Below are positions 3,330 to 42,346 of a stretch of DNA of 64,000 bases, one piece after another. The position numbers and the translations under genes are program-made. The stretch lies in NCBI GenBank assembly GCA_030017685.1, contig JASEHH010000003.1, positions 25,319 to 89,318 of the forward strand, in the 5' to 3' direction. The notes beneath the pieces are model-generated. The model searched no databases. It worked only from the letters and a program-made list of their open reading frames with translations, and was not told where the DNA came from. How positions within the stretch are numbered: position 1 is the stretch's first letter; every line of letters begins with the position of its first letter. The DNA is from Thermodesulfobacteriota bacterium. GTDB taxonomy: Bacteria; Desulfobacterota; BSN033; UBA1163.

Positions 3330-3544
3330 CACAACCCCTCCTTTTATTATTAGAAATAGATTACAAAAACAACGGGTTATTACCCCCTGGGTTTCCTTCT
3401 CACCCCCCTTCTTCAACGATATCATTATTTATATGAATTTGGCCCACTTGTCAAATATTTTTCAAAAAATAAAAGCGACGAGAATCATTCCCAATCTTAA
3501 AAAAATATGCTATTAAAAACCTAACTCAACCGGAGGCGTATCTC

Positions 3545-4879
3545 ATGAACTTCTTCGATCTCTATCGACAAAAAACATCCCTTTCAGAAAAGCTTTTCAA
3601 AAGAGCCAAAGAGGTGATGCCAGGGGGTATCTCTCATAATGTCCATTACTTTCCTCCCTACCCCTTCTTCCTGAAGGAGGCAAAAGGTTCAAAAATTCGG
3701 GATGTGGACGGAAACGAATATATCGATCTCTGGATGGGCCACTACACCCATATCCTCGGCCATCATTCTGAAATCATCGTCGAAGCCATTGAACAGCAAT
3801 TAAAAGAGGGAATTCACTGGGGCATCCTCTTTGAAAAACAGGTCGAGTGGGCCGAACTCATCCGTGAATTGATCCCCTGTGCGGAAACGGTCCGGTTCTG
3901 CTGCTCCGGAACCGAGGCAACCATGTATGCGGTTCGCCTCGCACGGGCATTTACAAGGAAGAATACGATTTTAAAGATAGCCGGAGGCTGGCATGGTGCC
4001 AACTCAGACCTCTCTGTGGGAATCAAATTGCCCTATGAAAAAGAGGAGAGCCTCGGCCTCCTGCCTGAACTCCAGCATTACACAAAGACCATCTTTTTTA
4101 ATGATCTCCCAGGGACACTTGAAATGATCCATCAAAACAGGAATGATCTGGCAGGAGTCATTCTTGAACCTATCGTGGGTGAGGGTGGATTCATCCCCGC
4201 CACCGAAGAATATCTGAAAATGCTTCGTTCCGAGACGGAAAAATTGAGAGCTCTTCTCATCTTTGACGAGGTGATTTCTGGATTTCGGGTCGGTCTCGGA
4301 GGAGCTCAGGGACTTTTTAATATCCTCCCAGACCTTACTACCCTTGGGAAGATTATTGGCGGAGGAATGCCAGTTGGGGCGCTCGTGGGAAGAAAGGAGA
4401 TCATGGAAAAGACCTCACCTGAAAAGAAGGCAGACAAATGGGAGAAGATTTTGATTGGTGGCGGGACTTTTTCTTCCCATCCACTAACCGTTGCCGCTGG
4501 AATAACCATCCTTCGTTATTTAAGAGATTTTGAGGAGGAGATCTATCCGGTTTTAGAGGTTAAGGGAGAACGGGTGCGTAAGGGTGTTCAGGAAGCCCTT
4601 CAGCGCGAAGGAGTGGAGACCGTTGTCACAGGGACCGGCTCCCTCTTTCAGACTCACTTCCCTTTCCAGAAAGGAGTAACTCTGAACTCTCCCCATTCGA
4701 TCAATCAATTTACCGATACAGAGAAAAGAGAAGTTGAGTTTCGTATCCGGATGCTGAATCACGGAGTCCATATGATGCACGGCGGCGGAAGCCTGTCGAT
4801 GGCCCATTCTGATGAAGACATTGAAAGGATCATCCAGGCGACAAGAGAGGTAGCAAGGGAAATGGTAAATATAGTTTAG
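3545..4879 (+). CDS. hemL: glutamate-1-semialdehyde 2,1-aminomutase family aminotransferase (HemL-like, class III)
   Basis: 444 aa. The HemL-like blocks CSGTEATMYAVRLARAFT, IFDEVISGFRVGLGGAQ and LGKIIGGGMPVGA (the PLP-lysine region) are present. The N-terminal motif is divergent (GGISHNVHYF instead of GGVNSPVRAF). It is adjacent to the hemY/hemH/hemE genes. Confidence 0.65.
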   Translation: MNFFDLYRQKTSLSEKLFKRAKEVMPGGISHNVHYFPPYPFFLKEAKGSKIRDVDGNEYIDLWMGHYTHILGHHSEIIVEAIEQQLKEGIHWGILFEKQVEWAELIRELIPCAETVRFCCSGTEATMYAVRLARAFTRKNTILKIAGGWHGANSDLSVGIKLPYEKEESLGLLPELQHYTKTIFFNDLPGTLEMIHQNRNDLAGVILEPIVGEGGFIPATEEYLKMLRSETEKLRALLIFDEVISGFRVGLGGAQGLFNILPDLTTLGKIIGGGMPVGALVGRKEIMEKTSPEKKADKWEKILIGGGTFSSHPLTVAAGITILRYLRDFEEEIYPVLEVKGERVRKGVQEALQREGVETVVTGTGSLFQTHFPFQKGVTLNSPHSINQFTDTEKREVEFRIRMLNHGVHMMHGGGSLSMAHSDEDIERIIQATREVAREMVNIV

Positions 4880-23789: not shown

Positions 23790-24287
23790 ATGTCGAAGAC
23801 AGAACAGTTTTTAAAGGAGGCATTTGCAGGAGAATCTCAGGCAAACCGAAAATATCTTGCCTTTGCAGGAAAAGCCGATCAGGAGGGTTATCCTCAGGTG
23901 GCGCGTCTTTTCCGTGCCGCAGCCGAGGCAGAGACCGTCCATGCCCACAGTCATTTAAGGGTTCTGGGGGGGATCAAAAGCACCAAAGAGAACCTCCAGG
24001 AGGCTATAGCGGGTGAAACCCATGAGTTTAAGAGCATGTATCCGGAGATGATCGAAGCAGCTAAATCAGAAGGCCAAAAAGATGCGGTTAGAAGTTTCAA
24101 CTTTGCCAATGAGGTTGAGAAGGTCCATGCCCAGCTTTATCAGAAACTGTTAGACGGTCTGGGAAAACCTCAGGAGAATTATCCCTATTATATCTGCCCG
24201 GTCTGTGGATACACGGCTGAAAAAGAGCCTCCCGGAACCTGCCCGGTCTGTGGAGCCAAAGGAGAGATGTTCAAAAAAATAGAATAA
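23790..24287 (+). CDS. rbr: rubrerythrin (ferritin-like diiron domain plus C-terminal rubredoxin-like CxxC...CxxC)
   Basis: Translation shows E...EAETVHAHSH and a C-terminal CPVCGYT...CPVCGA. A GAGGAGG RBS lies 9 nt upstream. Confidence 0.85.
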   Translation: MSKTEQFLKEAFAGESQANRKYLAFAGKADQEGYPQVARLFRAAAEAETVHAHSHLRVLGGIKSTKENLQEAIAGETHEFKSMYPEMIEAAKSEGQKDAVRSFNFANEVEKVHAQLYQKLLDGLGKPQENYPYYICPVCGYTAEKEPPGTCPVCGAKGEMFKKIE

Positions 24288-24305
24288 CCGGAAAAGGAGG
24301 TCTTA

Positions 24306-24821
24306 ATGAAAGAACGAACAGGAATTATAACCATGAAGGGAAACCCCTTAACTCTAATCGGAAACGAGCTCAAAGTCGGTGACGTCGCACCTGACTTTGT
24401 CGCCTTGAACAATGATCTCTCCCCAATAAAATTTTCATCGTTTCGTGGCAAAATCTGCATTCTCTCGTCAGTGCCTTCCCTTGACACACCGGTCTGTGAT
24501 ATGGAGACTCGAAGATTTAATGAAGAGGCAAGCCGTCTGGGTCCGGATGTGATGATTTTAACCATCAGCATGGACCTCCCCTTTGCGCAGAAACGCTGGT
24601 GTGCGGCAAGCGGAGTGGATAAGGTTCAAACCCTGTCAGATCATCGCGATGCCTCTTTCGGCACCTCATATGGGGTGTTGATTAAAGAGCTGCGGCTCCT
24701 TGCCAGGGCTGTCTTTCTGGTGGATCGGAAAGGGACCCTTCAATATATCCAGATCGTCAAGGAGATGACGAGCGAGCCGGACTATGAAGCTATCCTGAAT
24801 GCCTTAAAAAAATTGACATGA
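24306..24821 (+). CDS. tpx: thiol peroxidase (Tpx, atypical 2-Cys peroxiredoxin)
   Basis: Translation shows GDVAPDF, the peroxidatic-Cys region VPSLDTPVCD and a resolving-Cys region RWCAA. An AAGGAGG RBS is present. Confidence 0.8.
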   Translation: MKERTGIITMKGNPLTLIGNELKVGDVAPDFVALNNDLSPIKFSSFRGKICILSSVPSLDTPVCDMETRRFNEEASRLGPDVMILTISMDLPFAQKRWCAASGVDKVQTLSDHRDASFGTSYGVLIKELRLLARAVFLVDRKGTLQYIQIVKEMTSEPDYEAILNALKKLT

Positions 24822-24833
24822 GGGGGTAAAGAT

Positions 24834-25409
24834 ATGAAGAAGATCTATTTAACAATGCCTGTCCTCACCATTCTGCTTCTCACACTGGTGTCTCCCGTTT
24901 TACCTGCCAACAAGCCGCCGGCAAAAGGTGAGACCTTACCTGTATTCAATCTTCCGATTCCTAAAAGTCCCGCTGAAAAAGGTTATCTGGGTCTCTCCGG
25001 CGATGGCCTTTTTAAAATTCCACAGATCAAAGCCAGGGTGGTGATTGTCGAAATCTATAGTATGTATTGTCCTTATTGTCAGAAGGATGCTCCCGGGATC
25101 AACGAATTCTATCAACTAATCGAGAAAAGTTCGAATCTTAAATCCAAGATTAAAATGATCGGAATCGGTGCGGGAAATACATCCTTTGAAGTGGAGGTAT
25201 TTAAGAAGACCTATCAGGTCCCGTTTCCGCTCTTTCCGGATAAGGATTTTACAATCCATAAGGCTTCCGGGGAAGTAAGGACACCCTACTTTATCGTCAT
25301 TAAGATCAATGATGACGGGACTCACCAGATCGTCCATGCCCAGTTAGGGGATTATCCAGGGGCCGAACCATTTCTGGAGATTGTCCTTAAGGCTTCGGGA
25401 CTTAAATAA
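24834..25409 (+). CDS. secreted thioredoxin-fold thiol-disulfide oxidoreductase (TlpA/ResA-like)
   Basis: Signal peptide plus the active-site region YSMYCPYCQKD. Confidence 0.6.
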   Translation: MKKIYLTMPVLTILLLTLVSPVLPANKPPAKGETLPVFNLPIPKSPAEKGYLGLSGDGLFKIPQIKARVVIVEIYSMYCPYCQKDAPGINEFYQLIEKSSNLKSKIKMIGIGAGNTSFEVEVFKKTYQVPFPLFPDKDFTIHKASGEVRTPYFIVIKINDDGTHQIVHAQLGDYPGAEPFLEIVLKASGLK

Positions 25410-25419
25410 GGAAGAGAGG

Positions 25420-26028
25420 ATGAAAAAGATAATAAGGGTTGACCTTGTCTTGATCTCAATGGCCATTTCAATCGGGGCGTTTATTCCGGCAGTTTATGGC
25501 GCATCGGACGCCTTTAAGGAGAATATTTATAAGGTGGGCGCCCTTAAACCGGTTGACAGTAAACTCAATGTGAAGGTCGGAGATCGTGCGCCTGACTTCA
25601 CCCTTCCCTCTGTATCCGGAGAGAAGGTTTCTTTGAGCCAGTATCGCGGAAAGAAGAACGTGGTCCTTTCCTTTGTCCCTGCGGCCTGGACCCCTGTCTG
25701 CTCAGATCAGTGGCCTGGTTATAATATCATAAAAGATGTTTTTCAACAGAACGATGCCATCCTCTTCGGAATTACGGTGGACAATATCCCCACCCTTTTT
25801 GCCTGGACTAACCAGATGGGAAAATTATGGTTCTCTGTGCTCTCAGATTTCTGGCCTCATGGGGCCGTGGCAAAAAAGTATGGTGTCTTGCGCTCCGATG
25901 GAGTCTCAGAGAGGGCGCTTTTTGTAATCGATAAGAAAGGAACCCTTGGATATATTGACGTCCACGACATCAACAAGCGGCCTCCCCTCGAAGACCTGGT
26001 GAGTGCATTGGAGAAACTTAAAAGATAG
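25420..26028 (+). CDS. secreted peroxiredoxin (AhpC/TSA-redoxin family)
   Basis: Signal peptide, GDRAPDFTLPS, peroxidatic-Cys region FVPAAWTPVCSDQ. An ATG at 25420 has a purine-rich RBS. The track ORF starts upstream at 25381, inside the previous gene. Confidence 0.65.
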   Translation: MKKIIRVDLVLISMAISIGAFIPAVYGASDAFKENIYKVGALKPVDSKLNVKVGDRAPDFTLPSVSGEKVSLSQYRGKKNVVLSFVPAAWTPVCSDQWPGYNIIKDVFQQNDAILFGITVDNIPTLFAWTNQMGKLWFSVLSDFWPHGAVAKKYGVLRSDGVSERALFVIDKKGTLGYIDVHDINKRPPLEDLVSALEKLKR

Positions 26029-26029
26029 A

Positions 26030-26105
26030 ACGATGAACCACATTTATTTTTCATCGTTCATCGTTCATTGTTCATGGTTCATCGTTTATCGTTCATCATT
26101 CATCG
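26030..26105. repeat. heptanucleotide tandem repeat (TCGTTCA, about 9 copies) between convergent genes
   Basis: catcgttcatcgttcattgttcatggttcatcgtttatcgttcatcattcatcgtcat. Confidence 0.7.
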
Positions 26106-26582
26106 TCATATTGTAATGATTTCCCCTTCGATCTTTTCTCCGATGTTTAGAATTCCAAGGGTGGCACCATGCCAGAAAGAGCGAGTAGGAGAGCCGGGGT
26201 TGAAAAAAAAGCTGTTCTTCACCCGGTGATTGGCAGGAGCATGGGTATGGCCATAGATGATCGCATCCACCTCATCAAATTCGTCTCTGATCCTTGACTC
26301 GATTCCGAAGGGCGCCCCGCCTCCGTGAATCAAACCTATTCGAAATCCCCCTAATTCAATGACCTGTTTCTGCGGAAAGACCTTCCGGATTTCATAAGGG
26401 TCCATATTCCCGCAAACAGCAATCAACTCTTTGATTCCAGAAAGGTATTCTGCAACAGACCAACTTACAAAGTCCCCTGCATGAACAATCTTCTCCACAT
26501 CCCCGAAATGGAATTCCATCATCTTTTTGAATTCAGAATTTGGTTCCCTTAAATGCGTATCGGAAAGGACACCAATCTTCAT
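26106..26582 (-). CDS. metallophosphoesterase, YfcE/MJ0936-like
   Basis: Translation shows MKIGVLSDTHL, GDFV, GNMD and GHTH motifs of calcineurin-like phosphoesterases. The start at 26582 is the internal Met (the track ORF begins at 26645). Confidence 0.7.
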   Translation of the reverse strand: MKIGVLSDTHLREPNSEFKKMMEFHFGDVEKIVHAGDFVSWSVAEYLSGIKELIAVCGNMDPYEIRKVFPQKQVIELGGFRIGLIHGGGAPFGIESRIRDEFDEVDAIIYGHTHAPANHRVKNSFFFNPGSPTRSFWHGATLGILNIGEKIEGEIITI

Positions 26583-26638
26583 ATTAAACTCCGGTATCGG
26601 AATAGAAATGGAATTTATGTTATTTAAAAAAGGGAGTC

Positions 26639-27136
26639 TTGTCAATTTACATGATGCATTTCCCTTTTTTTCCTAATCTGGGTTATAATAAAAATGTGGC
26701 GATTGGTCGCAAAAAGAAGGCCCTTGTCCATATTGCAAAGGAGGACCTCCACCTCGATGAGGAATCTTATCGCCAGATTCTCAAGGGAGTGGCAGGGGTG
26801 GAGAGTTCAACCCAGTTGAACAAGGAAGGGTTTGAAAAGGTGATGAGACGTTTTCAGGAGATGGGATTTAAAGGCCTCCTCCCCCATCCCTATCATCCCG
26901 CCCCAAAGGGCAGGCTCATCCCTTCAGACAGCCCCCAGGGCCTGGAATCGATCACCTTGAGCCAGAACGATTTTATTTCTTATCTTCTGGAAGGGTTAAA
27001 GTGGGAGGAGGGACATTACCACGCCTTCTGCCAGCGCATCATCAAAAGCCCCCAACCGCGGACCAAAAGGGACGGGCAGAAGATCATCATCGGTCTTATG
27101 GCCATATTGAGAAAAAAAGCAATCCAGAAAATGTAA
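26639..27136 (+). CDS. DUF1018 (phage Mu GemA/gp16-like) domain protein, start uncertain
   Basis: KKKALVHIAKEDLHLDEESYRQILKGVAGVESSTQLNKEGFEKVMRRFQEMGF matches the characteristic DUF1018/GemA block. No other phage genes are nearby. The start codon is ambiguous (TTG at 26639 or GTG at 26696). Confidence 0.5.
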   Translation: MSIYMMHFPFFPNLGYNKNVAIGRKKKALVHIAKEDLHLDEESYRQILKGVAGVESSTQLNKEGFEKVMRRFQEMGFKGLLPHPYHPAPKGRLIPSDSPQGLESITLSQNDFISYLLEGLKWEEGHYHAFCQRIIKSPQPRTKRDGQKIIIGLMAILRKKAIQKM

Positions 27137-27198
27137 CCCCCCTACCCCTCCCTCCCCCGCAAGTGGGGAGGGAAAAGGGGAGGGGGAAGGAGAGAGCT

Positions 27199-27987
27199 AT
27201 GAAAAAATATATCATGATCGGTCTGGCAGTTCTATTGATCGCTTCTCTGGGGCTTGTCACCCTCAGTAAGGAAAAAATTCCTCCCTTCATTGAAATGGAG
27301 GTGAAGGGAGTAAGGATAGATCCCGTTGGTCAGAGCCCGGTCGTCATCCTTGCTGACAGGGATGGGAAAAAAGCGCTCCCCATCTGGATCGGTCTTCTTG
27401 AAGCCAATGCCATCGATAAAGAGCTTAAACAGGTTTCCTCTCCAAGGCCAATGACCCATGATCTCCTTCATTCCATTCTGACACAGACGCATATGAAGGT
27501 GAAGGAGGTAAAGATCGTCGATCTCAAAGAACAGACCTATTATGCCACCCTCTTTCTTATTTTGAACAAAGGGCTGATCGAAGTCGATGCCCGACCGAGC
27601 GATGCCATCATCCTCGCACTGAAATCGAAAGTCCCGATTCTCGTCTCTGCCAAGATTTTGGAGCAACAGGGGCTTGCCCTTTCCAGGCAGGAAGGAATTG
27701 GGGAACGGCATGGAATTCGGATTCAGGAACTCACACCCTCCCTCGCCTCTCACTTCAACTTCAAAGGGCAAAAGGGGGTGCTGGTTTCCGAGGTGCTGAC
27801 AGGGAGCATCTCGGAGGCCTCCGGAATCAAGGCAGGAGATATCATTACCAAGATCAATTTAAAAGAGGCGGGAAGCATTCAGGAATTTGAAGAAATCTTT
27901 GACAAGGCCAAGGCGGGCGATTCGCTACGGATCTTACTTTTTAGAGATGAAAAATTCCAGGAAGTAAATCTATTCCTGAAACCCTGA
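27199..27987 (+). CDS. bifunctional nuclease (BFN/DUF151) domain protein with C-terminal PDZ domain
   Basis: A signal/TM leader, then BFN-like blocks LPIWIG...EANAI...RPMTHDL...IDARPSDAIILAL, then a PDZ-like tail (GVLVSEVLTGSISEASGIKAGDIITKIN). An ATG at 27199 has a GGAAGGAGAG RBS. Confidence 0.55.
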   Translation: MKKYIMIGLAVLLIASLGLVTLSKEKIPPFIEMEVKGVRIDPVGQSPVVILADRDGKKALPIWIGLLEANAIDKELKQVSSPRPMTHDLLHSILTQTHMKVKEVKIVDLKEQTYYATLFLILNKGLIEVDARPSDAIILALKSKVPILVSAKILEQQGLALSRQEGIGERHGIRIQELTPSLASHFNFKGQKGVLVSEVLTGSISEASGIKAGDIITKINLKEAGSIQEFEEIFDKAKAGDSLRILLFRDEKFQEVNLFLKP

Positions 27988-28500
27988 TCCAAACTGAAAA
28001 GGTATTTTGGGATGTGCCTTGAAAGAGAGGACCCCTCACCACCTTTCTCTTCCCCATCCCCGACCGCAACTCCGATTCCCCCATCCCTTCTCCTTTAACG
28101 ATTCTCCGCCAAGGTCACTAATCAGGCACTTTACCAGAAAGTCTCAGAGTTTCCTTTTCTTTAAGTTGTTTTAGAACCTACGTTTACTCCCGTTGTTGTA
28201 AGGATAGCAAAAATAATAGCTTGATTCAGGATGCCATGCAATGTATCTCTTCGAGAGTCACACACGGTTCATGGCCGAATGTCAACATTAAAGCCCCCCC
28301 ATGTTTACAAAGAAGAAGTGGTATTCTGGTTTGCAGATCTTTTCGTGCCTCATCCAACCTATCGCTTTTGATTTTCGCCCTTTCACTCCTATAATCCCCC
28401 CTTTATCGCCTTATGGATCTTTTCATCACCAAACTGTTTATAAAGCATGATTTGTCAAATAAGATGATCTCAAAACTGAAACTCTTAACAAGGAGGAACA

Positions 28501-29193
28501 ATGGATATGGCCCTAATCGAAATGCAAAACATAAAAAAGGACTACTTCTTGGGTGAAACAGTAGTGCATGCCCTCCAAGGGATTGACTTACAAATAGATA
28601 AAGGAGAGTTTGTGGCCATATGGGGACCCTCCGGCTCTGGCAAAACCACGCTTCTGAACCTTATCGGCGCCATTGATGAACCATCGACAGGGGATCTGGC
28701 GATTGCTGGCAAGGAAGTTCGGTCTTTGTCAGATAACCAAAGAAGCGAGCTTCGTAATGAAACGGTCGGTTTTATATTTCAAGGTTTTAACCTAATCCCG
28801 GTTCTCTCCGCCCTGGAGAATGTGATGCTCCCTCTTCAAATTAAAGGTGCATCTTTCGGAGAAGCTAAAGCCAAGGCCTTGAGCCGTTTAAAGCAAGTGG
28901 GCTTAAGTGAACTTATCCATAATCGCCCGGCCAAAATGTCAGGAGGGCAACAACAAAGGGTGTCGATTGCGAGGGCATTGGTAAATGATCCCTCTTTGGT
29001 GATTGCCGATGAACCGACCGCCAATCTGGACACTGAAACAGCCCGCATGATCATTTCCATCATGCGCGAGCTGAATGAAAAAGATGAGATCACTTTTATT
29101 TTTTCTACCCATGATCAACGGCTCCTGGATCAGGTCAAACGCCTGGTGCGCCTGGAGGATGGACGAATCGTCGATGGAGGGATGAAGCGATGA
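28501..29193 (+). CDS. ABC transporter ATP-binding protein (MacB/LolD/FtsE-like)
   Basis: Translation shows GPSGSGKTT, LSGGQQQRVSIARAL and VIADEPTANLD. A GGAGG RBS is present. Confidence 0.85.
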   Translation: MDMALIEMQNIKKDYFLGETVVHALQGIDLQIDKGEFVAIWGPSGSGKTTLLNLIGAIDEPSTGDLAIAGKEVRSLSDNQRSELRNETVGFIFQGFNLIPVLSALENVMLPLQIKGASFGEAKAKALSRLKQVGLSELIHNRPAKMSGGQQQRVSIARALVNDPSLVIADEPTANLDTETARMIISIMRELNEKDEITFIFSTHDQRLLDQVKRLVRLEDGRIVDGGMKR

Positions 29194-30428
29194 GAAAATG
29201 GATGAAAATAGCAATTCGCAATATTCTAAGAAATAAGCGCCGGTCCTTTGTCACTTTGCTCGCGATAGGTGTGGGCTTTTCAGCGATCAGCCTCTTTCGC
29301 GGTTATGTCAGTAATACCTATTCCGGATTAAGGGAATCAGCTATTCGAGGCGAGGGCCTGGGTCATCTAACTATCTACAAGGCTGGCTGGCTCGAGAAAG
29401 GGAAACTTGATCCTGAGCGATATATGTTTTCGAAAGCGGAAGTCGACAAAATAACGAAACTGGTCACGGAAGAAAATGAGGTCATTTTGGCTACCCCTCA
29501 GATTCAGGTTGCCGGTATTGTCTCGAATGGAACCACCTCTACCATTTTCATAGCCCAGGGAGTCGTTCCCAGGGATGATAAGACTATTAAAGGAGCCTGG
29601 GCTGCTTTTAGGCCCATTAATGGAGAGGGATTACATGAGCAGAAGACTTATGGAGTGGAGATTGCCCAGGATTTAGCCAAGTATCTCAACCTCAAACCTG
29701 GCAAGGACGGGGTTGTGATGGTCACTACCCTTAGCGGGCAGATGAATGCCATGGACATACAAGTTGCGGGTGTATATGATTCTGGGTCGGATGCCACTAA
29801 TGACAAATACATGCGTTTCACTTTTGACTTCGCACAGTCCCTTTTTGACACGAAAATGGCTGAAAGAATCGTTTTACTGCTGGAAGACTGGGGAAAGACC
29901 GAGAAGATGCGTGCGCTCCTTCTGACCAAACTAACCAAGGCAGGCATTGCCTGTGAGATAAAGACCTGGAACGAACTATCCTTATTCTATTCAAAGGTTA
30001 GAGGGATGTTTGATATGATCTTCCTATTCCTGTTCTCCATTATCTTAGTCATCGTTGTTATGAGCACTGTCAACACGATGGGTATGGCAGTTTTAGAGAG
30101 AACCAGAGAGATTGGAACCCTGAGGGCCTTGGGCTTAAAGAGAAGGGGTACATCGCTGCTCTTCGCGATGGAAGGCGGCCTGTTGGGCCTTTTCGGCAGT
30201 TTCATAGGAGTAGTATTGCATGTGAGCGTGTGGGCCATTATTCGAGCTTTCTCCCCGACCTACACACCTCCGGGTGCTTCTACACCTGTGCCATTAATTG
30301 TCAACCTTGTACCTCAAACCATGTTCGTGTTGATGCTCTTTCTGATTTTCCTTTCTTTGTTAGCTGCTATCATCCCGGCGAGGCGTGCGGCCAAACAAAA
30401 TGTTGTGGACGCCCTGGGACACGTGTAA
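29190..30428 (+). CDS. ABC transporter permease, FtsX/MacB-like (N-terminal TM, large periplasmic domain, C-terminal 3-TM bundle)
   Basis: 412 aa with FtsX-like topology. Its start overlaps the ATPase stop (ATGA). Confidence 0.75.
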   Translation: MRKWMKIAIRNILRNKRRSFVTLLAIGVGFSAISLFRGYVSNTYSGLRESAIRGEGLGHLTIYKAGWLEKGKLDPERYMFSKAEVDKITKLVTEENEVILATPQIQVAGIVSNGTTSTIFIAQGVVPRDDKTIKGAWAAFRPINGEGLHEQKTYGVEIAQDLAKYLNLKPGKDGVVMVTTLSGQMNAMDIQVAGVYDSGSDATNDKYMRFTFDFAQSLFDTKMAERIVLLLEDWGKTEKMRALLLTKLTKAGIACEIKTWNELSLFYSKVRGMFDMIFLFLFSIILVIVVMSTVNTMGMAVLERTREIGTLRALGLKRRGTSLLFAMEGGLLGLFGSFIGVVLHVSVWAIIRAFSPTYTPPGASTPVPLIVNLVPQTMFVLMLFLIFLSLLAAIIPARRAAKQNVVDALGHV

Positions 30429-30447
30429 ATATATTAGAAGGAGGAAG

Positions 30448-31215
30448 ATGATGAATTGCCAACATAAAAAACGAGATTTGATTCTTTTAGTTTTTACACT
30501 TGTTTCTTGTCTGGGCTTTTTCCTCCCTTCGCTTCATGCCGCCATGGACCCCAAGGAGATCCTCATAAAAGCGGATGGAGCTCGGGGTAACGTGGGAGGA
30601 GTAGAGTGGGAGATCGACATTGAATCCGTTGAAGGAGGGCGTCAACAACAAAGAACAATCAGGGTAACTGCTCGTGATTTCAACTCACTGGCAGACTTTC
30701 TTGCTCCAGCCAATGTGAAAGGCCAAAAGTTATTGATGCTAGACCGCAATATGTGGTTTGTGAAACCAGGTCTTTCTAAAGCAGTCCCTATCTCTCCCCG
30801 GCAAAAACTAATGGGCGGTGCTGCCAATGGCGACATAGCATCGACCAACTATGCCGGCGACTATCAAGCCATTCAAAGTTTGGAGGACACGGCGAATGGA
30901 GAGCCCTGCTATCTCTTTGATTTAAGCGCAGTGGATAAGAAGGCTACTTATGACCGGATTAAATACTGGGTATCCAAAGAGCGGCTGGTGGGCCTCAAGG
31001 CTGAATTTTACACGGTTTCAGGAAAAATGTTTAAGACCGCCACATTCGAATATGAAAACAGCATCACTGTCGATAGTAAGCCGCAACCATTCATTTCCAA
31101 AATGGTTATTACGAGCGCCGTGCTGAAAGAGGATGTCACAACCATGTACTTTCGCAAGGTATTGATCAAGAAGGTTCCTGATTCCGTTTTCAACCTAAAC
31201 CTGCTGTTAAAATAG
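30448..31215 (+). CDS. LolA-like outer-membrane lipoprotein-sorting family protein (secreted)
   Basis: Signal peptide (MMNCQHKKRDLILLVFTLVSCLGFFLPSLHA). The size and position after the ABC/FtsX pair fit the LolA-like family. AGGAGG precedes the ATG at 30448. Confidence 0.45.
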   Translation: MMNCQHKKRDLILLVFTLVSCLGFFLPSLHAAMDPKEILIKADGARGNVGGVEWEIDIESVEGGRQQQRTIRVTARDFNSLADFLAPANVKGQKLLMLDRNMWFVKPGLSKAVPISPRQKLMGGAANGDIASTNYAGDYQAIQSLEDTANGEPCYLFDLSAVDKKATYDRIKYWVSKERLVGLKAEFYTVSGKMFKTATFEYENSITVDSKPQPFISKMVITSAVLKEDVTTMYFRKVLIKKVPDSVFNLNLLLK

Positions 31216-31226
31216 TACCTTTCAAA

Positions 31227-32606
31227 ATGAGTACATGCCTTAGAATGAAGAATCGCCTTTTCACAGTTGTTGTTTTATTAATGGTTGGTTTAGGATGCTT
31301 GCCAGAGACAGGAATGGCCGGTGAGGATAGTCATACAGCCCTTGCCGTGATCCAGAAGACATTGGCCGAGCGCTTCTCGTGGGATTTGCGGATTTTGACC
31401 TATGGTATTATCCAGGAGCCTTCCAATTCAAGCCAAAATTCTGAAAACAACTTTCTGCAAATTCCGCATTACACGGCAGATCTGGAAATACGGCCGGATC
31501 TTCGTCTAAACATAGACCCTTTAGAGCTAAGCGCTAAACCCAGAATGAGACTTGAGTATAGCATCTGGCGAGAAGGGTACCGCAAGGGAGAGTCAGAATG
31601 GGATGACGATTGGTACATCAATGAGTGGTTGGCAAGATGGAAGGTGTGTAACAATCTATTTATATCCTACGGCCGCGAAAACCTGCAATGGGGGCCTTCT
31701 TTTCTTTTTTCTCCTTCAAATCCCTTTTTCCAGGATAATGGTCGTCGTAACCCCTACCTGGAAGTGCCGGGCATGGATTTCGGCCGGTTGGTCTGGATCC
31801 CGGAAAGTTCCTGGACGATATCTTTCATCGCCAATACAGATGAAGGACGTAACAAGACCGCATCCGGCTTTCCGATTGGCTTTCCTCAAGGTACACCATT
31901 TAAAAAGACTTATGCCTTGAAGATAGATTATACAGGCCGGCAGAATTATGGTTCAATCATCTTCTCGCATAGGGAGGATTCCCTGAATTCATTGGGGTTT
32001 TTTGGAGGATGGACTATTTCCGATGCCATCCTGCTCTATGGCGAGGGAGTCATTACTCAAGGTAGTAAGGCATTATACCCCAAGAGGGATAGCTCCCCTT
32101 TCGGGGCTTCAATGCAAAAACTCCATCAAGACGATTCCACTATTAAACCGGTTCTCCTCATCGGAGGCTCCTACACTTTTGCAGCGAGTGGAACCTTGTC
32201 GATGGAATACGCCTATTATAGCCCAGGGTACAGCGATGCTGATTCAGATACCTACTACTCCTTAAGGCGCAGGGCAGCAGGAGCTATCAGCTCTAACGGT
32301 TTGGTATCGGCATTGGGACAAAAAAACCTCACCGAAACGGCCAATACGGGATTAAGATTCTTGCGAAAGAATTATGCACTGTTCCAGTATACTCAGAATA
32401 ATATCAAAAACAAAATCGATCTTACCTTACGCTGGACCCAGAATTTGAATGATGGATCTGGTCAATTTACAACGGTTGTGTCATATTCTATGGGTAATCA
32501 TCTGGAGTTGTTTTCCGTCGGTACCGTAATGGCAGGTGGTAAGAATACAGAGTTTGGGAGTATCCTCGATTATCAATGGATAATCGGTTTAAAGTATAGT
32601 TTCTGA
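31227..32606 (+). CDS. hypothetical outer-membrane beta-barrel protein
   Basis: Signal peptide with alternating polar/aromatic strands. The C-terminal GLKYSF ends in an aromatic residue, typical of outer-membrane proteins. Confidence 0.4.
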   Translation: MSTCLRMKNRLFTVVVLLMVGLGCLPETGMAGEDSHTALAVIQKTLAERFSWDLRILTYGIIQEPSNSSQNSENNFLQIPHYTADLEIRPDLRLNIDPLELSAKPRMRLEYSIWREGYRKGESEWDDDWYINEWLARWKVCNNLFISYGRENLQWGPSFLFSPSNPFFQDNGRRNPYLEVPGMDFGRLVWIPESSWTISFIANTDEGRNKTASGFPIGFPQGTPFKKTYALKIDYTGRQNYGSIIFSHREDSLNSLGFFGGWTISDAILLYGEGVITQGSKALYPKRDSSPFGASMQKLHQDDSTIKPVLLIGGSYTFAASGTLSMEYAYYSPGYSDADSDTYYSLRRRAAGAISSNGLVSALGQKNLTETANTGLRFLRKNYALFQYTQNNIKNKIDLTLRWTQNLNDGSGQFTTVVSYSMGNHLELFSVGTVMAGGKNTEFGSILDYQWIIGLKYSF

Positions 32607-32632
32607 TATAGAAAGCACCGGGTAACCCGAGC

Positions 32633-33712
32633 ATGGAACAAAGCGAAATTTATATCAAGCATTATATCAATGCGAGAAATGTTCTTATTGATTTACTCTA
32701 TACAATTATCATATCCACCTTGATCGCCGCTTTCTTGACCTTTACGGGCATCACCACAAAGTCCTTTATCATTAATTTAATTGTGTCTCAATCTTTCGGG
32801 ATCTCTATTTGCTCGATTATTATGTTTTTACTCTGGATATTTAAACCAGAGAAGAGTGCGTCCCTTGCTTTCATATTCACAATAGGCGTTGGCAGTGGAA
32901 TCCTGATCGGCCTGCAAATAGGGCCTTTTGTCCTTCAGCAGATCTTTTCCATCGCCCTGAAGCCACAGGATAGAGGTCTTCTTCAGACTATCATCATTGC
33001 CATCGCCTTCGGTAGTGCTGTCAGTTATTTCTTCTACGCCAGAGCAAGATTAAGAGTGAGTGAGGAAGAGATCCAGCAGGAAAGGATCAAACGTCTTTCC
33101 AGCGAAAAAGAAGCCCTTGAGGCCAATCTGAGACTGCTCCAAGCACAGATCGAGCCCCATTTCTTGTTCAATACCCTTTCCAATATCCTGAGTCTGATAG
33201 ATACAGACCCGACCAATGGCAAGTCCATGTTAATGGATCTGATTCATTATCTGCGCACCTCTCTGTCAAGGACATTTCCTGATCCAATCACATTGGATCA
33301 GGAAATAGACATGATCAAAGCCTATCTTAATATTCAAAAAATCAGGATGGGCGAAAGGCTGCATTTCAAGATCGAGCTTTCTGATGCAGTCCGGAAACAT
33401 CCCTTCCCGCCTATGTTGCTTCAGCCTCTGGTAGAGAATGCCGTAAAACACGGGCTTGAGCCCAAAATGGAGGGAGGAGCAATCATGATAAAGGTTGGAG
33501 AAGAGGATGAAGTCATAAGAATCGAAATCAGCGATGATGGTCAAGGATTCTCCTCTTTCAACAAGACCGGGGTAGGTATCGGAAACGTGAGAGAACGCAT
33601 TAGATTGCTTTATGGAGAAAAAGGGCGTTTAATATTAGAAGAAAACAAGCCAAATGGAGTAAGGGCGATCATCGAGGTGCCCAAGCATGATCTACAAAGC
33701 TATTATTGCTGA
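32633..33712 (+). CDS. sensor histidine kinase, LytS/YehU-type (multi-TM sensor + His_kinase + HATPase_c)
   Basis: About 5 TM helices, then the HPHFLFNTL H-box and a HATPase region (PLVENAVKHGL...DDGQGF). Confidence 0.75.
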   Translation: MEQSEIYIKHYINARNVLIDLLYTIIISTLIAAFLTFTGITTKSFIINLIVSQSFGISICSIIMFLLWIFKPEKSASLAFIFTIGVGSGILIGLQIGPFVLQQIFSIALKPQDRGLLQTIIIAIAFGSAVSYFFYARARLRVSEEEIQQERIKRLSSEKEALEANLRLLQAQIEPHFLFNTLSNILSLIDTDPTNGKSMLMDLIHYLRTSLSRTFPDPITLDQEIDMIKAYLNIQKIRMGERLHFKIELSDAVRKHPFPPMLLQPLVENAVKHGLEPKMEGGAIMIKVGEEDEVIRIEISDDGQGFSSFNKTGVGIGNVRERIRLLYGEKGRLILEENKPNGVRAIIEVPKHDLQSYYC

Positions 33713-34451
33713 TGATGAAAAGGAGTTGAGGACATACCTCAAATCCATTCTATCAGAGATTTGGCCGGAGCTCTTGATTTGCGGCGAGGCCAAAAATGGT
33801 AAAGAAGCCCTTGAATTAGTGGAATCAAAACGGCCGCAGATCGCCTTCCTTGATATCAGAATGCCTGGTCTTTCAGGTATGGAGGTGGCAAAAAGAATCG
33901 CAGGTCTCTGTCGTATCGTATTTGTAACCGCCTTCGATCAGTATGCAGTAGAAGCCTTTGAGAAGGAGGCTGTTGATTATCTCCTCAAACCTGTATCGAA
34001 AGACAGACTGATTCAGACCATTCAACGCCTCAAGAACCAATTGAGTTCTTCCACTGAACCACCTGCAAGGCTGGCTGAGGTTGTAGAGCAGGTCCTTTCC
34101 AAGTTGCCGGGTAGGGGGGGGTCTGATTTCCTGCGTTGGATTAAAACGCAAAACAAAGAGAGTATCCGTCTCATACCAGTGGAGGAGGCAGACTACTTCA
34201 AGGCCGAAGATAAATACACTCTGGTCATAACGAAAGAAGGGGAGTCCCTTATTAAAAAGAGCATTAAAGAATTGGTCCAGGAACTCGATCCCGGTCAATT
34301 CTGGCAGATACACCGGGGAACCATAGTGAATGTCTCCAAAATAGACAAAGTGAGTCGTTCACTCACAGGACGGGGAATATTGAAACTTAAAGAAAGACCG
34401 GAGCTTCTCACCGTAAGCCGCAACTACCTACATTTGTTTAAACAAATGTAA
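33687..34451 (+). CDS. LytR/AlgR-family response regulator (REC + LytTR DNA-binding domain)
   Basis: Translation shows a REC domain (IADDE...FLDIRMPGLSG) and a LytTR C-terminus (YFKAEDKYTLVITKEGESLIKKSIKEL...QIHRGTIVN). Confidence 0.8.
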   Translation: MIYKAIIADDEKELRTYLKSILSEIWPELLICGEAKNGKEALELVESKRPQIAFLDIRMPGLSGMEVAKRIAGLCRIVFVTAFDQYAVEAFEKEAVDYLLKPVSKDRLIQTIQRLKNQLSSSTEPPARLAEVVEQVLSKLPGRGGSDFLRWIKTQNKESIRLIPVEEADYFKAEDKYTLVITKEGESLIKKSIKELVQELDPGQFWQIHRGTIVNVSKIDKVSRSLTGRGILKLKERPELLTVSRNYLHLFKQM

Positions 34452-34532
34452 CCGGCCCGAAACCGAATACTTTTGATGACGGCTTTATGATGAGTTCAAA
34501 AAAGGGACCGAGAGATCACAGCATTCAAAGCC

Positions 34533-34940
34533 TCAGTTCAGAAGCCGTTTGACGATCGGGACCTTGAAGAACTGGACTCCTTCTTCCTTCAGGATTACTT
34601 CCTCCTCTGTCGTGGCCGTTCCCCGGATGTTTCTCTTTTCTTCTTCTCCATGGTGGATTTTGAGCGCCTCCTGGGCAAATTTGGCTCCCACATCTTCGAA
34701 GTGTTTGTCCACATACTCATGAATTAACTGCAAGGCCTGCTGAGCAACCTCCTCTCCCTTCTTTCTCTCTCCATCGCTCTTCTTAATCATGAATGGAGAA
34801 AAGGTTTTCACCACCTGGGTATCATCGCAGATGGGGCAGTTGATGATGCCGGCAGACTGCTGCTCCTCAAAGCAGGAGCTGTCTTTAAACCAGCACTCAA
34901 AAAGATGGCCATTGGAACAGATGAGATCGTAAGCAATCAT
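34533..34940 (-). CDS. DUF1178 family zinc-ribbon protein
   Basis: MIAYDLICSNGHLFECWF...CPICDD matches the DUF1178 pattern. The start at 34940 is an internal Met of the track ORF. Confidence 0.5.
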   Translation of the reverse strand: MIAYDLICSNGHLFECWFKDSSCFEEQQSAGIINCPICDDTQVVKTFSPFMIKKSDGERKKGEEVAQQALQLIHEYVDKHFEDVGAKFAQEALKIHHGEEEKRNIRGTATTEEEVILKEEGVQFFKVPIVKRLLN

Positions 34941-35054
34941 TCTGACACCCCAATATAATTTAACACCTTCCTCCAAATTTTGGCAAACTATTTCTCGCAA
35001 TTGCAAAGGAGAAAAAAAAGGGGTAATATTTAATATAAAAGAAAGGAGGCAACC

Positions 35055-35606
35055 ATGAGAAAAAAGTTATTCCATCAGGGGATTTTCATATTTCTCTTGT
35101 TACTGCTCCTTCTCCCCCTTTCCAATGCGGAAGCGAAGAAAAAGGTGGAGTTGGTTGGGAGAGAGATACTTAATTTTACCCTACCCTCCACCCAGGATCG
35201 TGTGATCACTTACGCCGATGAGTATTATGGCAAGTACCACCTGGTCATCACCTTTTTCCCTGCGGCCTTCACACCCATCTGAACAGGCGAGATGGAGGGC
35301 CATCAGAGGAACCTCTACCTCTATGAGCGCTTCAACGCCCGGGTCCTGGGCGTCAGTAGGGACGATGTGATAACTTTAAAATACTTTGCCAATAGCCTCG
35401 ATTTAACCTTCCCTCTCCTTTCCAATGTCACCTCTTTTCTGGGTGTCAGTGTCGATGCTCAACCTGATGGTAGGCCCATCTTCAGCAGGCGGACGATTAT
35501 CATCGACAAGGCAGGTATCATTCGTTATGTGAGGGATGGTTCGCCGGATTTCAAGGATATCCTCCTCTTCCTTAAAAAACTGAACCAGAAAGGAGGAAAA
35601 CCATGA
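35055..35606 (+). CDS. secreted PrxQ/Bcp-type peroxiredoxin with in-frame TGA at the peroxidatic Cys codon (candidate selenoprotein, or otherwise a nonsense pseudogene)
   Basis: Track ORFs 35055..35282 and 35292..35606 are in the same frame, separated only by TGA at 35280-35282. The translation ...VITFFPAAFTPI[TGA]TGEM...ARVLGVSRDD...FPLLSN aligns with PrxQ FFPxxFTPVCTTE...GVSxDS...FPLLSD, placing the TGA exactly at the catalytic Cys. A hairpin gatgg-aggg-ccatc starts 9 nt downstream. Confidence 0.55.
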
Positions 35607-36214
35607 AGAGAATAAGTCTTCTGTTCCTGTGTTTGTTTTTAATGATGGCCTGGCTTTCCGGATGCGCAACCTTTGAGACAGAGAAAAAGGCTGTTCCCTA
35701 TCGGTTGACCGCCCAGGGAACGGTGATCTGGGAGGACGAGTTCGAGTTTTTACCTCCCCCTCCAGACTGGAAACTCCTCCGGGTGGAGGGAGAAGGAGGG
35801 GACATTAACTTCGGGTTTACGCGATCAGACCCCGGAACCTTCCCCTCGATGACTTCATTCGCTTACGATGAGGAACCCTTCGGCTGCTCAACCAAATTTG
35901 AAGACAGGGAAAGAGAGTTTTTCAAACGGTTTCTCTTTAATGCCATCCTCCAGTTTCAGGTATTAGAGAAAAAGAAGACTCAGGTGCTTGGTGGAGAAGG
36001 ACTGGAGGTGGTCGTTGAGGGAAAGGACCCGGTCAAAAAAGAGAAAGTGAGGGCCAAAGTCGTCTTTGGCAAACGGGGCGAACGGATCGTGGGTTTCTAT
36101 ATCACCCAGTGGAGGCATTTGGACGGGACCTATGACCTCTCAGCTTTTGAAGTCTTTGACAGATTTGTGAAGTCTTTTAAGCTTCTCAAAAAATCTTTTT
36201 ATGAAACCCTATAG
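35603..36214 (+). CDS. hypothetical lipoprotein
   Basis: Signal peptide with lipobox LSGC. Translationally coupled to the Prx gene (ATGA overlap). Confidence 0.5.
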   Translation: MKRISLLFLCLFLMMAWLSGCATFETEKKAVPYRLTAQGTVIWEDEFEFLPPPPDWKLLRVEGEGGDINFGFTRSDPGTFPSMTSFAYDEEPFGCSTKFEDREREFFKRFLFNAILQFQVLEKKKTQVLGGEGLEVVVEGKDPVKKEKVRAKVVFGKRGERIVGFYITQWRHLDGTYDLSAFEVFDRFVKSFKLLKKSFYETL

Positions 36215-41107: not shown

Positions 41108-41147
41108 TAAATCCACCAAGCCAAAGGCTCGGTGGATTTTTTATTTT
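41108..41147. terminator. Rho-independent terminator hairpin at the 3' end of the oxidoreductase gene
   Basis: aaatccaccaagcc-aaag-gctcggtggattt flanked by T-rich sequence (ttttttatttt). Confidence 0.45.
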
Positions 41148-42346
41148 AATTGATTGAAATCGAACCCCTCTTTCAAGATGGAATTCTTGATCTCCTTGAT
41201 GTCCACCTCCTTTTCGATGGCACTGAGTAGCTCTGCCCTTCCTCTGGTCTCCCCAAGCAGGATACAACCGACGATTTTATCCTCCTTGAATGTGACCTTG
41301 CAGTAGCTGCATTTCTCACGATCACTTCTCACCACACACTCGAACTTCCCCTCTGCGTCGATTTCCCCTGCGGAGGTGAGATCAATTCCTACCACCTTAA
41401 GGGTATTGGAAACAACCGTGCCTTCATAGGACTCATTTCCTCCTGCCATATTGACTCCGGCAATCTCGCCCTGTTTCTGGGCAGCAGGCCAGATCCCATA
41501 AACTCGGCCCCGATGTTCTGCCACATCTCCAGCCGCAAAGATGTCTTTGGCCCTCGTTTCCAGCCCGTCATTGACCAGAATTCCATTCTTCATCTCCAGC
41601 CCCATCTCCTTGGCCAGTTGAATATTCGGCCTTACCCCTGCAGAGATGATCGCCATCTGGCCTTCTACCACCCTGCCATCCTTAAGGCGGACCCCCTCAA
41701 CCTTCTCTTTCCCCAGAATCTCCTCGGACTGTCCATTGAGAAAGAAGAAGAAACCCATGGTTTCCATCTTTGCCTGAAGGATCTGGGCACCCTCCGGGTC
41801 CATCTGTCTTGGAAGAATTCTGGGATTATGCTCAATCACTGCCACCTTAATGGACCGTCTCAATAAGGCTCCGCCTGTCTCCAAACCGACCAGCCCCCCT
41901 CCAATGAGGATCGCCTGGCTGATCTTCTCTGAGAATGCTTTCATTCCAATCGCATCCTTCATCGTTCGAAGGGTAAAAACTCCTTCCTTTTCTGTCCCCT
42001 TGATGGGAGGCACAAAGGCGTTCCCACCTGTGGCTATAAGCAGGCTATCATAAGAATAAGTTTTCCCCTGTTTGCTCAAGACCTCTTTTTTGTCCGGACG
42101 AACCTCAACAACCGGCTCTTCCAGATGGAGGGAGATGTTTTTCCCCTGATAAAACTCTTTGGTGTGGATGGTAATCTCCTTGATCGCCACCTCTCCTGCA
42201 ACCAGTTCCGGGAATCGAACCCGGTAGTAAAAGGGATAACCTTCCCCTGTAAAGATGTGGATTTCACCCTTTGGGTCTCTTTCTCTGATCCTGACCGCTG
42301 CCCTTGCGCCTGCCACTCCGTTTCCGATGATGAGATACCGTTTCAT
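41141..42346 (-). CDS. FAD-dependent pyridine nucleotide-disulfide oxidoreductase (NADH oxidase / rubredoxin reductase-like)
   Basis: Translation shows the N-terminal GNGVAGARAA FAD site, a second GGGLVGLE NAD site, and the C-terminal cysteines CSYC...C. Confidence 0.65.
   Translation of the reverse strand: MKRYLIIGNGVAGARAAVRIRERDPKGEIHIFTGEGYPFYYRVRFPELVAGEVAIKEITIHTKEFYQGKNISLHLEEPVVEVRPDKKEVLSKQGKTYSYDSLLIATGGNAFVPPIKGTEKEGVFTLRTMKDAIGMKAFSEKISQAILIGGGLVGLETGGALLRRSIKVAVIEHNPRILPRQMDPEGAQILQAKMETMGFFFFLNGQSEEILGKEKVEGVRLKDGRVVEGQMAIISAGVRPNIQLAKEMGLEMKNGILVNDGLETRAKDIFAAGDVAEHRGRVYGIWPAAQKQGEIAGVNMAGGNESYEGTVVSNTLKVVGIDLTSAGEIDAEGKFECVVRSDREKCSYCKVTFKEDKIVGCILLGETRGRAELLSAIEKEVDIKEIKNSILKEGFDFNQLK

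Follow-up and report, generated by a model that had tools for sequence, protein, structure and literature searches.

Specialised lipids, unlike lipoproteins and lipopolysaccharide (LPS), are transported to the outer membrane of diderm bacteria by means that are largely unknown throughout the field. In the LolCDE–LolA–LolB system, whose cargo is triacylated lipoproteins, the inner-membrane component is a type VII ATP-binding cassette (ABC) transporter, comprising a separate ATPase and a permease with four transmembrane (TM) segments and a large periplasmic domain; its partners are a soluble carrier from the LolA/LolB clan and, where present, an outer-membrane lipoprotein, LolB. Transporters of the FtsX/MacB-fold mechanotransmission family are also found in MacAB–TolC and DevBCA–HgdD, together with a membrane-fusion adaptor and a TolC-type duct. 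DevBCA exports polyketide-derived heterocyst glycolipids. Two kinds of lipid biosynthesis cluster encode a LolA-fold carrier that is proposed to take a polyketide/fatty-acid-type lipid to the outer membrane, in company with resistance-nodulation-division (RND)/MMPL pumps and a receptor that is LolB-like or a lipoprotein; in mycobacteria the carrier is LppX, with MmpL7/DrrABC, for phthiocerol dimycocerosates (PDIM). In the other, that of the aryl polyenes (ApeL/ApeM/ApeN), the carrier is LolA-like and its part in moving a specialised lipid is likewise a proposal (PMC8253772). In Porphyromonas, haem limitation jointly induces an MMPL gene, a gene for a ‘lipoprotein-sorting protein’ and a hypothetical gene (PMC10470040), and the BBJ23–BBJ29 cluster of Borrelia has been predicted computationally to encode a homodimeric MacB-like ABC transporter, a LolA-like protein secreted by signal peptidase I (SPase-I) and a dedicated barrel (PMC13078400). 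The Ape and Borrelia precedents are proposals rather than demonstrations. Here we consider a cluster of six genes at 28501–34451 in a 64-kb stretch of DNA (the window) from a metagenome-assembled genome (MAG) of a Thermodesulfobacteriota bacterium (contig JASEHH010000003.1), in which a MacB-type transporter, a LolA-like carrier and an outer-membrane barrel of a new family are encoded together and are followed by a LytS/LytTR-type two-component system.

Our preferred reading, to which we would give a probability of about 0.55, is that the first four genes specify everything needed to export a hydrophobic cargo across the envelope by a Lol-like route, the cargo being in all likelihood a specialised lipid, and that the last two make the operon self-inducing. 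As with LolCDE, the cargo would presumably leave the inner membrane from its outer leaflet and end up in the outer membrane, but the ATPase and permease score well under the LolD and LolC/E cut-offs, the carrier belongs to PF17131 rather than to LolA PF03548, the outer-membrane partner is an integral barrel (18-stranded as modelled) and not a lipoprotein, the genes form a single operon with its own regulator, and relatives of the module are tied to polyketide-lipid synthesis. The shuttle protein and a monomer-type barrel replace the adaptor and duct of MacAB–TolC and DevBCA–HgdD; a MacB-type ABC transporter and an integral barrel distinguish the module from the Ape and LppX systems; and the Borrelia barrel (BBJ25) is of the Omp85 type, which that of the window is not. 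Only analogues, and no description of the four-gene module, were found in the searchable literature. We regard the unit as not previously described, and its association with a LytS/LytTR pair and a probable operator of three repeats as new: the components come from known superfamilies and the logic resembles that of Lol, the novelty lying in the barrel family, in the four-gene unit and in the regulator coupling.

A four-gene unit that recurs in many genomes

The six open reading frames (ORFs) all lie on the forward strand and are tightly packed (Table 1): neighbouring genes overlap by 4 nt at the first junction and by 26 nt at the last, and the three junctions between these are gaps of 19, 11 and 26 nt. 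An earlier, sequence-only reading of the window had described them in this way, and every ORF was found in its place; since the gene order recurs in dozens of genomes, the arrangement is not a matter of chance. Searches with hidden Markov models agreed with the domain assignments made in that reading for the ATPase, permease, LolA-like protein, kinase and regulator.

To what extent do the genes stay together elsewhere? One genome per GTDB species was scanned with a mid-diversity alignment, giving 165 relatives (loci are numbered with the prefix L below). Nearly all of the best 80 were Desulfobacterota-type MAGs (Syntrophorhabdus, Smithella, Syntrophaceae, Desulfobacteraceae and Desulfatiglandaceae). 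Where at least 3.3 kb of upstream sequence was available (63 loci), genes for the ATPase, permease and LolA-like protein were immediately 5' of the barrel gene and co-oriented with it in 60 cases, and the remaining three had the LolA-like gene alone in that position. Thus ATPase, permease, carrier and barrel recur as a fixed unit in the cross-genome search that the sequence-only reading had recommended, and from the way in which the outer flanks differ between genomes, the unit appears to travel as a cassette.

The absence of a MacA-type adaptor and of TolC, remarked on from the outset, extends beyond the cluster: no HlyD/MFP or TolC/OEP domain, such as a tripartite pump would have, was detected in the six genes, in the scanned neighbours or in the inspected orthologous loci. 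The accompanying idea that the LolA-like protein might take on the adaptor role needs refining: we read the protein as a soluble shuttle of the Lol type rather than as a MacA-like bridge.

In many relatives the operon has a seventh member, absent from the window: a secreted TPR protein of c. 224 amino acids is encoded directly before the ATPase gene and downstream of the operator discussed below, in L001 (4600–5274) and about 17 other loci (examples are L007–L011, L024, L043, L047, L048, L052, L068, L069, L074 and L083).

The transporter and its carrier

With ABC_tran and FtsX domains, four TM segments and a periplasmic domain, the products of the first two genes constitute a type VII (MacB/FtsX-fold) ABC transporter. 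The best NCBIfam matches of the ATPase were to LolD, then DevA and MacB, every one of them under its cut-off; LolD itself scored 251.2 bits with TIGR02211 (cut-off 307.75) and 212 with NF008639 (cut-off 360). The permease was still further from LolC/E (TIGR02212, 94.4 bits against a cut-off of 362.45), and these equivalog scores rule out the housekeeping LolCDE as the identity of the pair. The MacB_PCD match of the permease was borderline (26.4 bits against a gathering score of 27), and orthologues carry precomputed MacB_PCD hits. In the TM profile its four hydrophobic segments are at residues 20–38, 276–294, c. 324–351 and 377–395, leaving a periplasmic domain of c. 237 amino acids between TM1 and TM2. 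Sequence matches to proteins in the PDB (YtrF, LolE, LolC, MacB and LolF) were weak, those to LolE, LolC and LolF having E values of 1e-10 to 1e-6. As there is a single permease gene, the permease presumably acts as a homodimer.

The third gene product matches only one family, LolA_like/TP_0789-like PF17131, and does so well above the gathering score (118.4 bits against a cut-off of 30); its closest solved relative is NE2245 (3BUU, E 3e-29). From a comparison of N-termini, translation is likely to begin at the ATG rather than at the upstream GTG of the listed ORF (Table 1). Since signal peptides of the SPase-I type (...SLHA|AMSPKEIL) are found across the homologues, and a lipobox cysteine is not conserved among them, the carrier is taken to be a soluble periplasmic protein. 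A lipobox-like string in the window protein, LVSC, was considered as a sign that it might be a lipoprotein; this was rejected, the cysteine not being conserved among homologues.

The outer-membrane barrel

The 459-residue product of the fourth gene founds a new family, for which neither Pfam nor NCBIfam has a model. Searches of Pfam (at E <= 1, with 47 diverse members), of NCBIfam and of PDB profiles gave nothing meaningful, whereas homologues are plentiful: 811 were found by word index, and 841 clusters (at 50% identity) at E <= 1e-3, all of them unnamed and none with a Pfam domain. An NCBI entry of 453 amino acids matches the window protein at 100% identity. The sequence-only reading would have been refuted if the barrel or the LolA-like protein belonged to a well-characterised uptake or lipid system, and neither falls in such a family.

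That the protein is an outer-membrane barrel, as had been predicted, is borne out by an AlphaFold2 (AF2) model built from a 65-sequence alignment (mean predicted local distance difference test score, pLDDT, 86.5; predicted template-modelling score, pTM, 0.80), which superseded a poor first model from 27 close sequences (pLDDT 61). In the model a signal peptide is followed by a short N-terminal helix (residues 38–49) and by 18 transmembrane strands; the turns at one end of the barrel are short, and the loops at the opposite end are long, among them a long L3 (residues 152–182), an L6 containing a beta-hairpin and an L7 with two long helices (337–372); the C-terminus reads ...KYSF. The best-conserved stretch, GRENLQWGPSxLxSPSNPFFxDNGRxNPxxExxGxDF (in members at 28–46% identity), would by strand order lie in loop L3 (residues c. 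149–182), which in classical porins is the constriction-forming loop. As modelled, the barrel belongs to the Occ/AlgE/Wzi structural class, with an 18-stranded fold of the monomeric type, and its closest folds are Occ-family substrate-specific uptake channels such as BenP. It shares only 8–11% identity with OprD, AlgE and Wzi, has no Pfam match to their families, and differs from them in its own invariant L3 motif, its two-helix L7 insertion and its genomic partners. It is not an Omp85 protein (BamA/TamA), lacking the combination of 16 strands with POTRA domains.

Some distant paralogues of the barrel carry N-terminal AMIN or SPOR peptidoglycan-binding domains, and in one protein a LolA_like domain is fused in frame to a barrel that has no signal peptide of its own, an arrangement that would fit a carrier working at the barrel's periplasmic opening. 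One of the AMIN-barrel paralogues, P0139, does not have ABC and LolA-like genes alongside it, from which it seems that not every member of the barrel family works with this transporter.

The two-component system and its probable operator

The fifth and sixth genes, a PF06580 + HATPase_c kinase paired with a REC–LytTR regulator, form a LytS/LytTR-type system. They do not qualify for any of the better known members of the class: no Pfam match to a 5TMR_LYT or GAF domain was found in the kinase, which is thus not a sensor of the LytS/BtsS type (5TM-5TMR_LYT, GAF), and the regulator scored below the cut-offs for BtsR (NF008677, 141.7 bits against 246) and LytR (109 against 375). In the TM profile the kinase has four or five N-terminal TM helices and no periplasmic domain (its match to PDB 6SWJ has an E value of 2e-21), and we presume it to be an intramembrane sensor. 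Compared with LytSR, BtsSR and AgrCA, with which it shares the kinase–regulator pairing and, presumably, a direct-repeat operator spaced by about two helical turns just upstream of a weak -35 hexamer, the window pair is distinguished by this short sensor, by having three repeats rather than two, and by a target that is an envelope transport operon containing the regulator's own genes.

That a LytS/LytTR pair directly follows the transport genes is true of the window, but the pair is an optional addition, present in about half of related loci, and not a fixed part of the module. Where at least 2.3 kb of downstream sequence was available (65 loci), kinase and regulator followed the barrel gene in 35, partially in 3 and not at all in 27. 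In one species a 1.8-kb gap after the barrel gene retains a recognisable remnant of the membrane region of the kinase.

Where might the regulator act? For LytTR regulators, AgrA among them, the binding sites are direct repeats that end just ahead of the -35 hexamer of a weak promoter (PMC4227749). Just such a pattern, direct repeats of 9–10 bp about two helical turns apart and immediately upstream of a -35, precedes the ATPase gene of the window (Table 1), in the form of three copies of the consensus CCyTTyCrTCrCC at 20-nt start-to-start intervals, and this segment is probably the operator. When both strands of the 64-kb window were scanned with a position weight matrix (PWM) for three sites 19–22 nt apart, the segment scored 38.7, the next best place (a microsatellite) 16.3, and the best of the shuffled sequences 12.0. 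In orthologous loci the triple repeat is on the coding strand, 95–270 nt before the ATPase gene, or c. 770–890 nt before it, upstream of the TPR gene, in loci that have one. Of 28 loci that have the two-component system, 23 carried the triple repeat, compared with 7 of 21 without the system (Fisher p 9e-4), in a test that ignores phylogeny and with a PWM seeded from some of the same sequences, both of which count against giving this association its full weight. Four of the seven repeat-bearing loci that have no intact two-component system (L002, L003, L017 and L022) hold decayed remnants of it, although the first three represent the same place in copies. In several loci of the Smithella type that lack the system, the promoter is instead close to consensus (TTGACA-N17-TATATG).

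The remnants just mentioned, of the kinase membrane region or of the regulator, are downstream of the barrel gene at c. 9547–10059 in L003 and L017 (L003 coordinates) and at 8414–8524 in L022, and the operator repeats are kept there.

Downstream of the third repeat is a candidate activator-dependent sigma-70 promoter with a 17-nt spacer and a predicted transcription start near 28472, and relatives keep both of its hexamers (TTTATA/TTTCAT and TAAGAT/TAAAAT) at an equal distance from that repeat. The geometry of repeats and promoter matches that of LytTR regulators (PMC4227749), and on this basis we suggest that the regulator switches on the operon of six genes to which it belongs. It tells against this that a promoter-like TTGATT-16-TATAAT sequence overlaps repeat 1 and would imply another promoter geometry; its hexamers are less conserved, and we consider it the less likely promoter.

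The second-ranked place in the operator scan was a tandem heptamer, (TTCATCG) x 8.1, at 26050–26106, between the last peroxiredoxin gene and the phosphoesterase gene. It reached its score of 16.3 because its unit equals the core of the proposed half-site (TTTCATCGC) and three units span 21 nt; it could be a coincidence or a second regulator-binding array.

Another regulator may occupy the LytS/LytTR position in a few places. In L050 the barrel gene is followed by genes for a DUF4388 protein and a sigma-54 enhancer-binding protein, and in L056, L060 and L072 by ORFs of similar size, that of L072 having no Pfam match when scanned. Loci of the L050 type suggest that a different regulator was recruited independently to the module.

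Clues to the cargo from related loci

In the two closest relatives of the window (L004 and L012) and in L011, a gene for a 545-residue flavoprotein of the CrtI/carotenoid-isomerase family, with a Tat signal, lies between the operator and the ATPase gene (Table 1). In L004 a second copy of the operator is present, so that the flavoprotein gene is flanked on both sides; the window aligns to both promoter copies of L004 and lacks the gene, which is consistent with its loss by recombination between the copies. A subfamily of the Smithella type has the LolA-like gene and a gene for a 510-residue barrel without the ABC genes, followed by genes of Stealth-family, glycosyltransferase and flippase type (L051, 5960–11537; L073, 5300–11312; L070), a context that hints at a link to glycans or glycolipids.

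More informative is a distant subfamily, with barrels of c. 400 amino acids, whose proteins have full-length identities to those of the window of 60–62% (ATPase), 44–46% (permease), 47–52% (carrier) and 34–40% (barrel). Here the module is directly behind a highly reducing polyketide synthase (HR-PKS) in five of the six lineages examined, the sixth ending at a contig edge; one of these synthases reads KS-AT-DH-MT-ER-KR-ACP. The genes are variously ordered. In one arrangement the synthase is followed by a phosphopantetheinyl transferase (PPTase) gene and then by ATPase, permease, carrier and barrel, and in another the order is PKS-PKS/PPTase-ATPase-permease-carrier-barrel. In a third, found in three loci, an acyl reductase (NAD_binding_4) gene, carrier, barrel and sulfotransferase follow the synthase; ATPase and permease are downstream in two of the three, and the third has only an ATPase gene, on the opposite strand at the contig end. 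To judge by such surroundings, what the module handles in those lineages is a fully reduced lipid derived from a polyketide.

The order HR-PKS, NAD_binding_4 reductase, LolA-like protein, barrel and sulfotransferase was noted in L091 (7892–12526), in L094 and in one further locus. It suggests that the product is a sulfated long-chain alcohol, which may represent an unrecognised class of sulfated lipids in sulfate reducers; in L091 the locus adjoins the sulfate-reduction genes aprBA.

Genes downstream of the barrel were tried as a further guide to the cargo in loci without the two-component system and had to be set aside, being too heterogeneous for the purpose.

Proposed mechanism and alternatives

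The sequence-only reading held that the first four genes make up one trans-envelope export device, and this idea has been strengthened by the four-gene synteny (95%), by the LolA_like–barrel fusion, by the barrel paralogues fused to AMIN or SPOR domains and by the polyketide-lipid clusters. In the scheme that we favour, ATP hydrolysis in the cytoplasm would move the large periplasmic domains of a homodimeric type VII ABC transporter (mechanotransmission), pulling the cargo from the outer leaflet of the inner membrane. The soluble LolA-like protein would receive the cargo and shield it across the periplasm before docking on the periplasmic face of the dedicated barrel, which would either insert the cargo into the outer membrane or release it outside, the long L3 being its most conserved element. 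The membrane-embedded LytS-type kinase might sense a signal from the membrane or related to the cargo and phosphorylate the LytTR regulator, which would bind the three direct repeats (centred at c. -47, -67 and -87) and activate the weak promoter; as this promoter would drive all six genes, the result would be positive autoregulation.

Several observations pull the other way. None of the scanned neighbours in the window is a lipid-synthesis, biosynthetic or cargo gene, so the polyketide link is transferred from a subfamily whose barrel is only 34–40% identical; the fusion of carrier to barrel is represented by a single metagenomic protein, N-terminally cut; loci without the two-component system have a miscellany of genes after that of the barrel (LysE, DUF374, DedA, FabI, Wzy_C and peptidase C1); and inducible two-component control is as much to be expected of a pump for stress or detoxification as of lipid export. 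This last point leads to the main alternative, in which the mechanics are the same and the cargo is exogenous: amphiphilic or hydrophobic toxins (antimicrobial peptides, bile-like detergents, solvents or hydrocarbons) would be taken from the outer leaflet of the inner membrane or from the periplasm and expelled through the barrel, the kinase detecting membrane insult or transporter activity in the manner of Bce systems. The transporter fold is shared with the MacAB and BceAB resistance systems, and a sensor without an extracytoplasmic domain, in an operon that appears to induce itself, is typical of resistance modules such as BceRS-AB. In the lineage of the window, the presence of a sensor and the absence of biosynthesis genes close by speak for a pump of this kind, as does the sigma-54 activator that stands in place of the two-component system in other lineages. 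We nevertheless think it unlikely: relatives embed the module in lipid biosynthesis clusters and not beside regulators, many lineages use consensus promoters and no sensor, and known efflux and resistance pumps are not characterised by a dedicated lipid-carrier protein.

Could the cargo be lipoproteins, or could the traffic be inward? A second, specialised lipoprotein-sorting pathway, in which the transporter would extract certain lipoproteins for transfer by the LolA-like protein, with the barrel substituting for LolB or serving as a Slam-like surface translocon, would account for the best named matches being LolD and LolC/E and for the carrier being in the LolA/LolB clan. The secreted TPR protein that joins the operon in many relatives also recalls Slam proteins, which combine TPRs with a barrel. 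Lipoproteins are among the cargo candidates proposed for the analogous Borrelia cluster (PMC13078400). The equivalog scores, however, are far under the cut-offs (251 against 308 and 94 against 362), no conserved lipoprotein gene was found to accompany the module in the loci inspected, the linkage to polyketide synthase, reductase and sulfotransferase genes favours free lipids, and an essential housekeeping function would be expected neither to be under an inducible promoter nor to be absent from most bacteria; we judge lipoprotein sorting improbable, and less likely than a detoxification pump. Least likely of all, and scarcely to be expected, is the uptake of hydrophobic growth substrates (long-chain alkanes, fatty acids or aromatics), with the barrel as entry channel, the LolA-like protein as shuttle, and the ABC transporter inserting or moving the substrate at the inner membrane. 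It is to be said for uptake that organisms with the module include Syntrophorhabdus and Smithella (alkane-degrading enrichment strains among the latter), that the barrel's nearest folds are uptake channels, and that on n-C28 Thalassolituus induces an MMPL–LolA-like fusion together with an unannotated porin encoded next to it (PMC6304351). The module has no solute-binding protein, no catabolic genes are linked to it in the loci inspected, and the biosynthetic linkage of the polyketide clusters argues for outward traffic. Moreover, type VII ABC transporters are not known to provide a transmembrane path for a substrate, and we know of no member that is an importer.

A broader and more tentative proposal, which we would put at somewhat short of even odds, is that the barrel family and its PF17131 partner form an unrecognised outer-membrane exit or insertion port for free lipids, fed by a MacB-type ABC transporter, and so a fourth lipid route of diderms beside Lol, Lpt and those of Mla/Tam type. 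It would then give Desulfobacterota a means of bringing lipids made by polyketide synthases, perhaps sulfated alkyl lipids, to the cell surface, under the control, in the lineage of the window, of a LytS-type intramembrane kinase sensing cargo or transporter load. The module is a compact candidate machine of four proteins, present in well over 100 species-level genomes; the invariant motif of its barrel is open to mutation, the genes linked to it in relatives (polyketide synthase, reductase and sulfotransferase) point to a likely class of cargo, and the predicted LytTR operator offers a handle for finding the inducing signal. It may be of further interest that some lineages have the module under sensor control while in others it is apparently constitutive.

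Table 1. Coordinates of the features discussed (window positions unless a locus is named)
Feature	Position	Strand	Basis
Candidate LytTR operator, three direct repeats CCCTTTCACTCCTAT / CCCCTTTATCGCCTT / TCTTTTCATCACCAA	28378..28432 (repeat starts 28378, 28398, 28418)	+	PWM and conservation
Candidate activator-dependent sigma-70 promoter	-35 TTTATA 28437-28442; -10 TAAGAT 28460-28465	+	Sequence inspection
Ribosome-binding site AAGGAGG	28490-28496	+	Sequence inspection
ABC ATPase, 230 aa	28501..29193	+	ABC_tran E 1e-33
FtsX/MacB-fold permease, 412 aa	29190..30428	+	FtsX E 4e-19, MacB_PCD E 1e-5
LolA-like carrier PF17131, 255 aa from ATG	30448..31215 (listed ORF from GTG 30385)	+	LolA_like E 4e-34
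Outer-membrane beta-barrel, 18-stranded as modelled, 459 aa	31227..32606	+	AF2 model; no Pfam/NCBIfam model
LytS-type histidine kinase PF06580, 359 aa	32633..33712	+	His_kinase E 2e-24, HATPase_c E 2e-7
Response_reg + LytTR regulator, 254 aa	33687..34451	+	Response_reg E 2e-24, LytTR E 7e-22
CrtI-family flavoprotein gene, L004	2303-4064		
CrtI-family flavoprotein gene, L012	~2500-4136		
CrtI-family flavoprotein gene, L011	1441-3186		

The surroundings of the cluster

Neighbouring genes in the window include those for rubrerythrin, three peroxiredoxin/redoxin proteins, a phosphoesterase, a nuclease/PDZ protein, a DUF1178 protein, a major facilitator superfamily (MFS) transporter and peptide transport, among others; no Rfam family was detected in 26000–36000. 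Between the nuclease/PDZ gene and the operator is a non-coding stretch of 323 nt (27993–28315), with no Rfam match and no notable ORF, which is absent from the closest relative, L004 (a 94% orthologue). The rubrerythrin gene and the three peroxiredoxin/redoxin genes form an oxidative-stress cluster (23790–26028) just upstream of the module, and a rubredoxin-reductase-like flavoprotein is encoded downstream of it (41141–42346, reverse strand); nothing ties either of these to the module. Finally, an ORF of 104 amino acids at 35292–35606 matches only the C-terminal half of the AhpC-TSA profile (positions 55–124), and is probably a truncated peroxiredoxin gene or one with a mis-called start.

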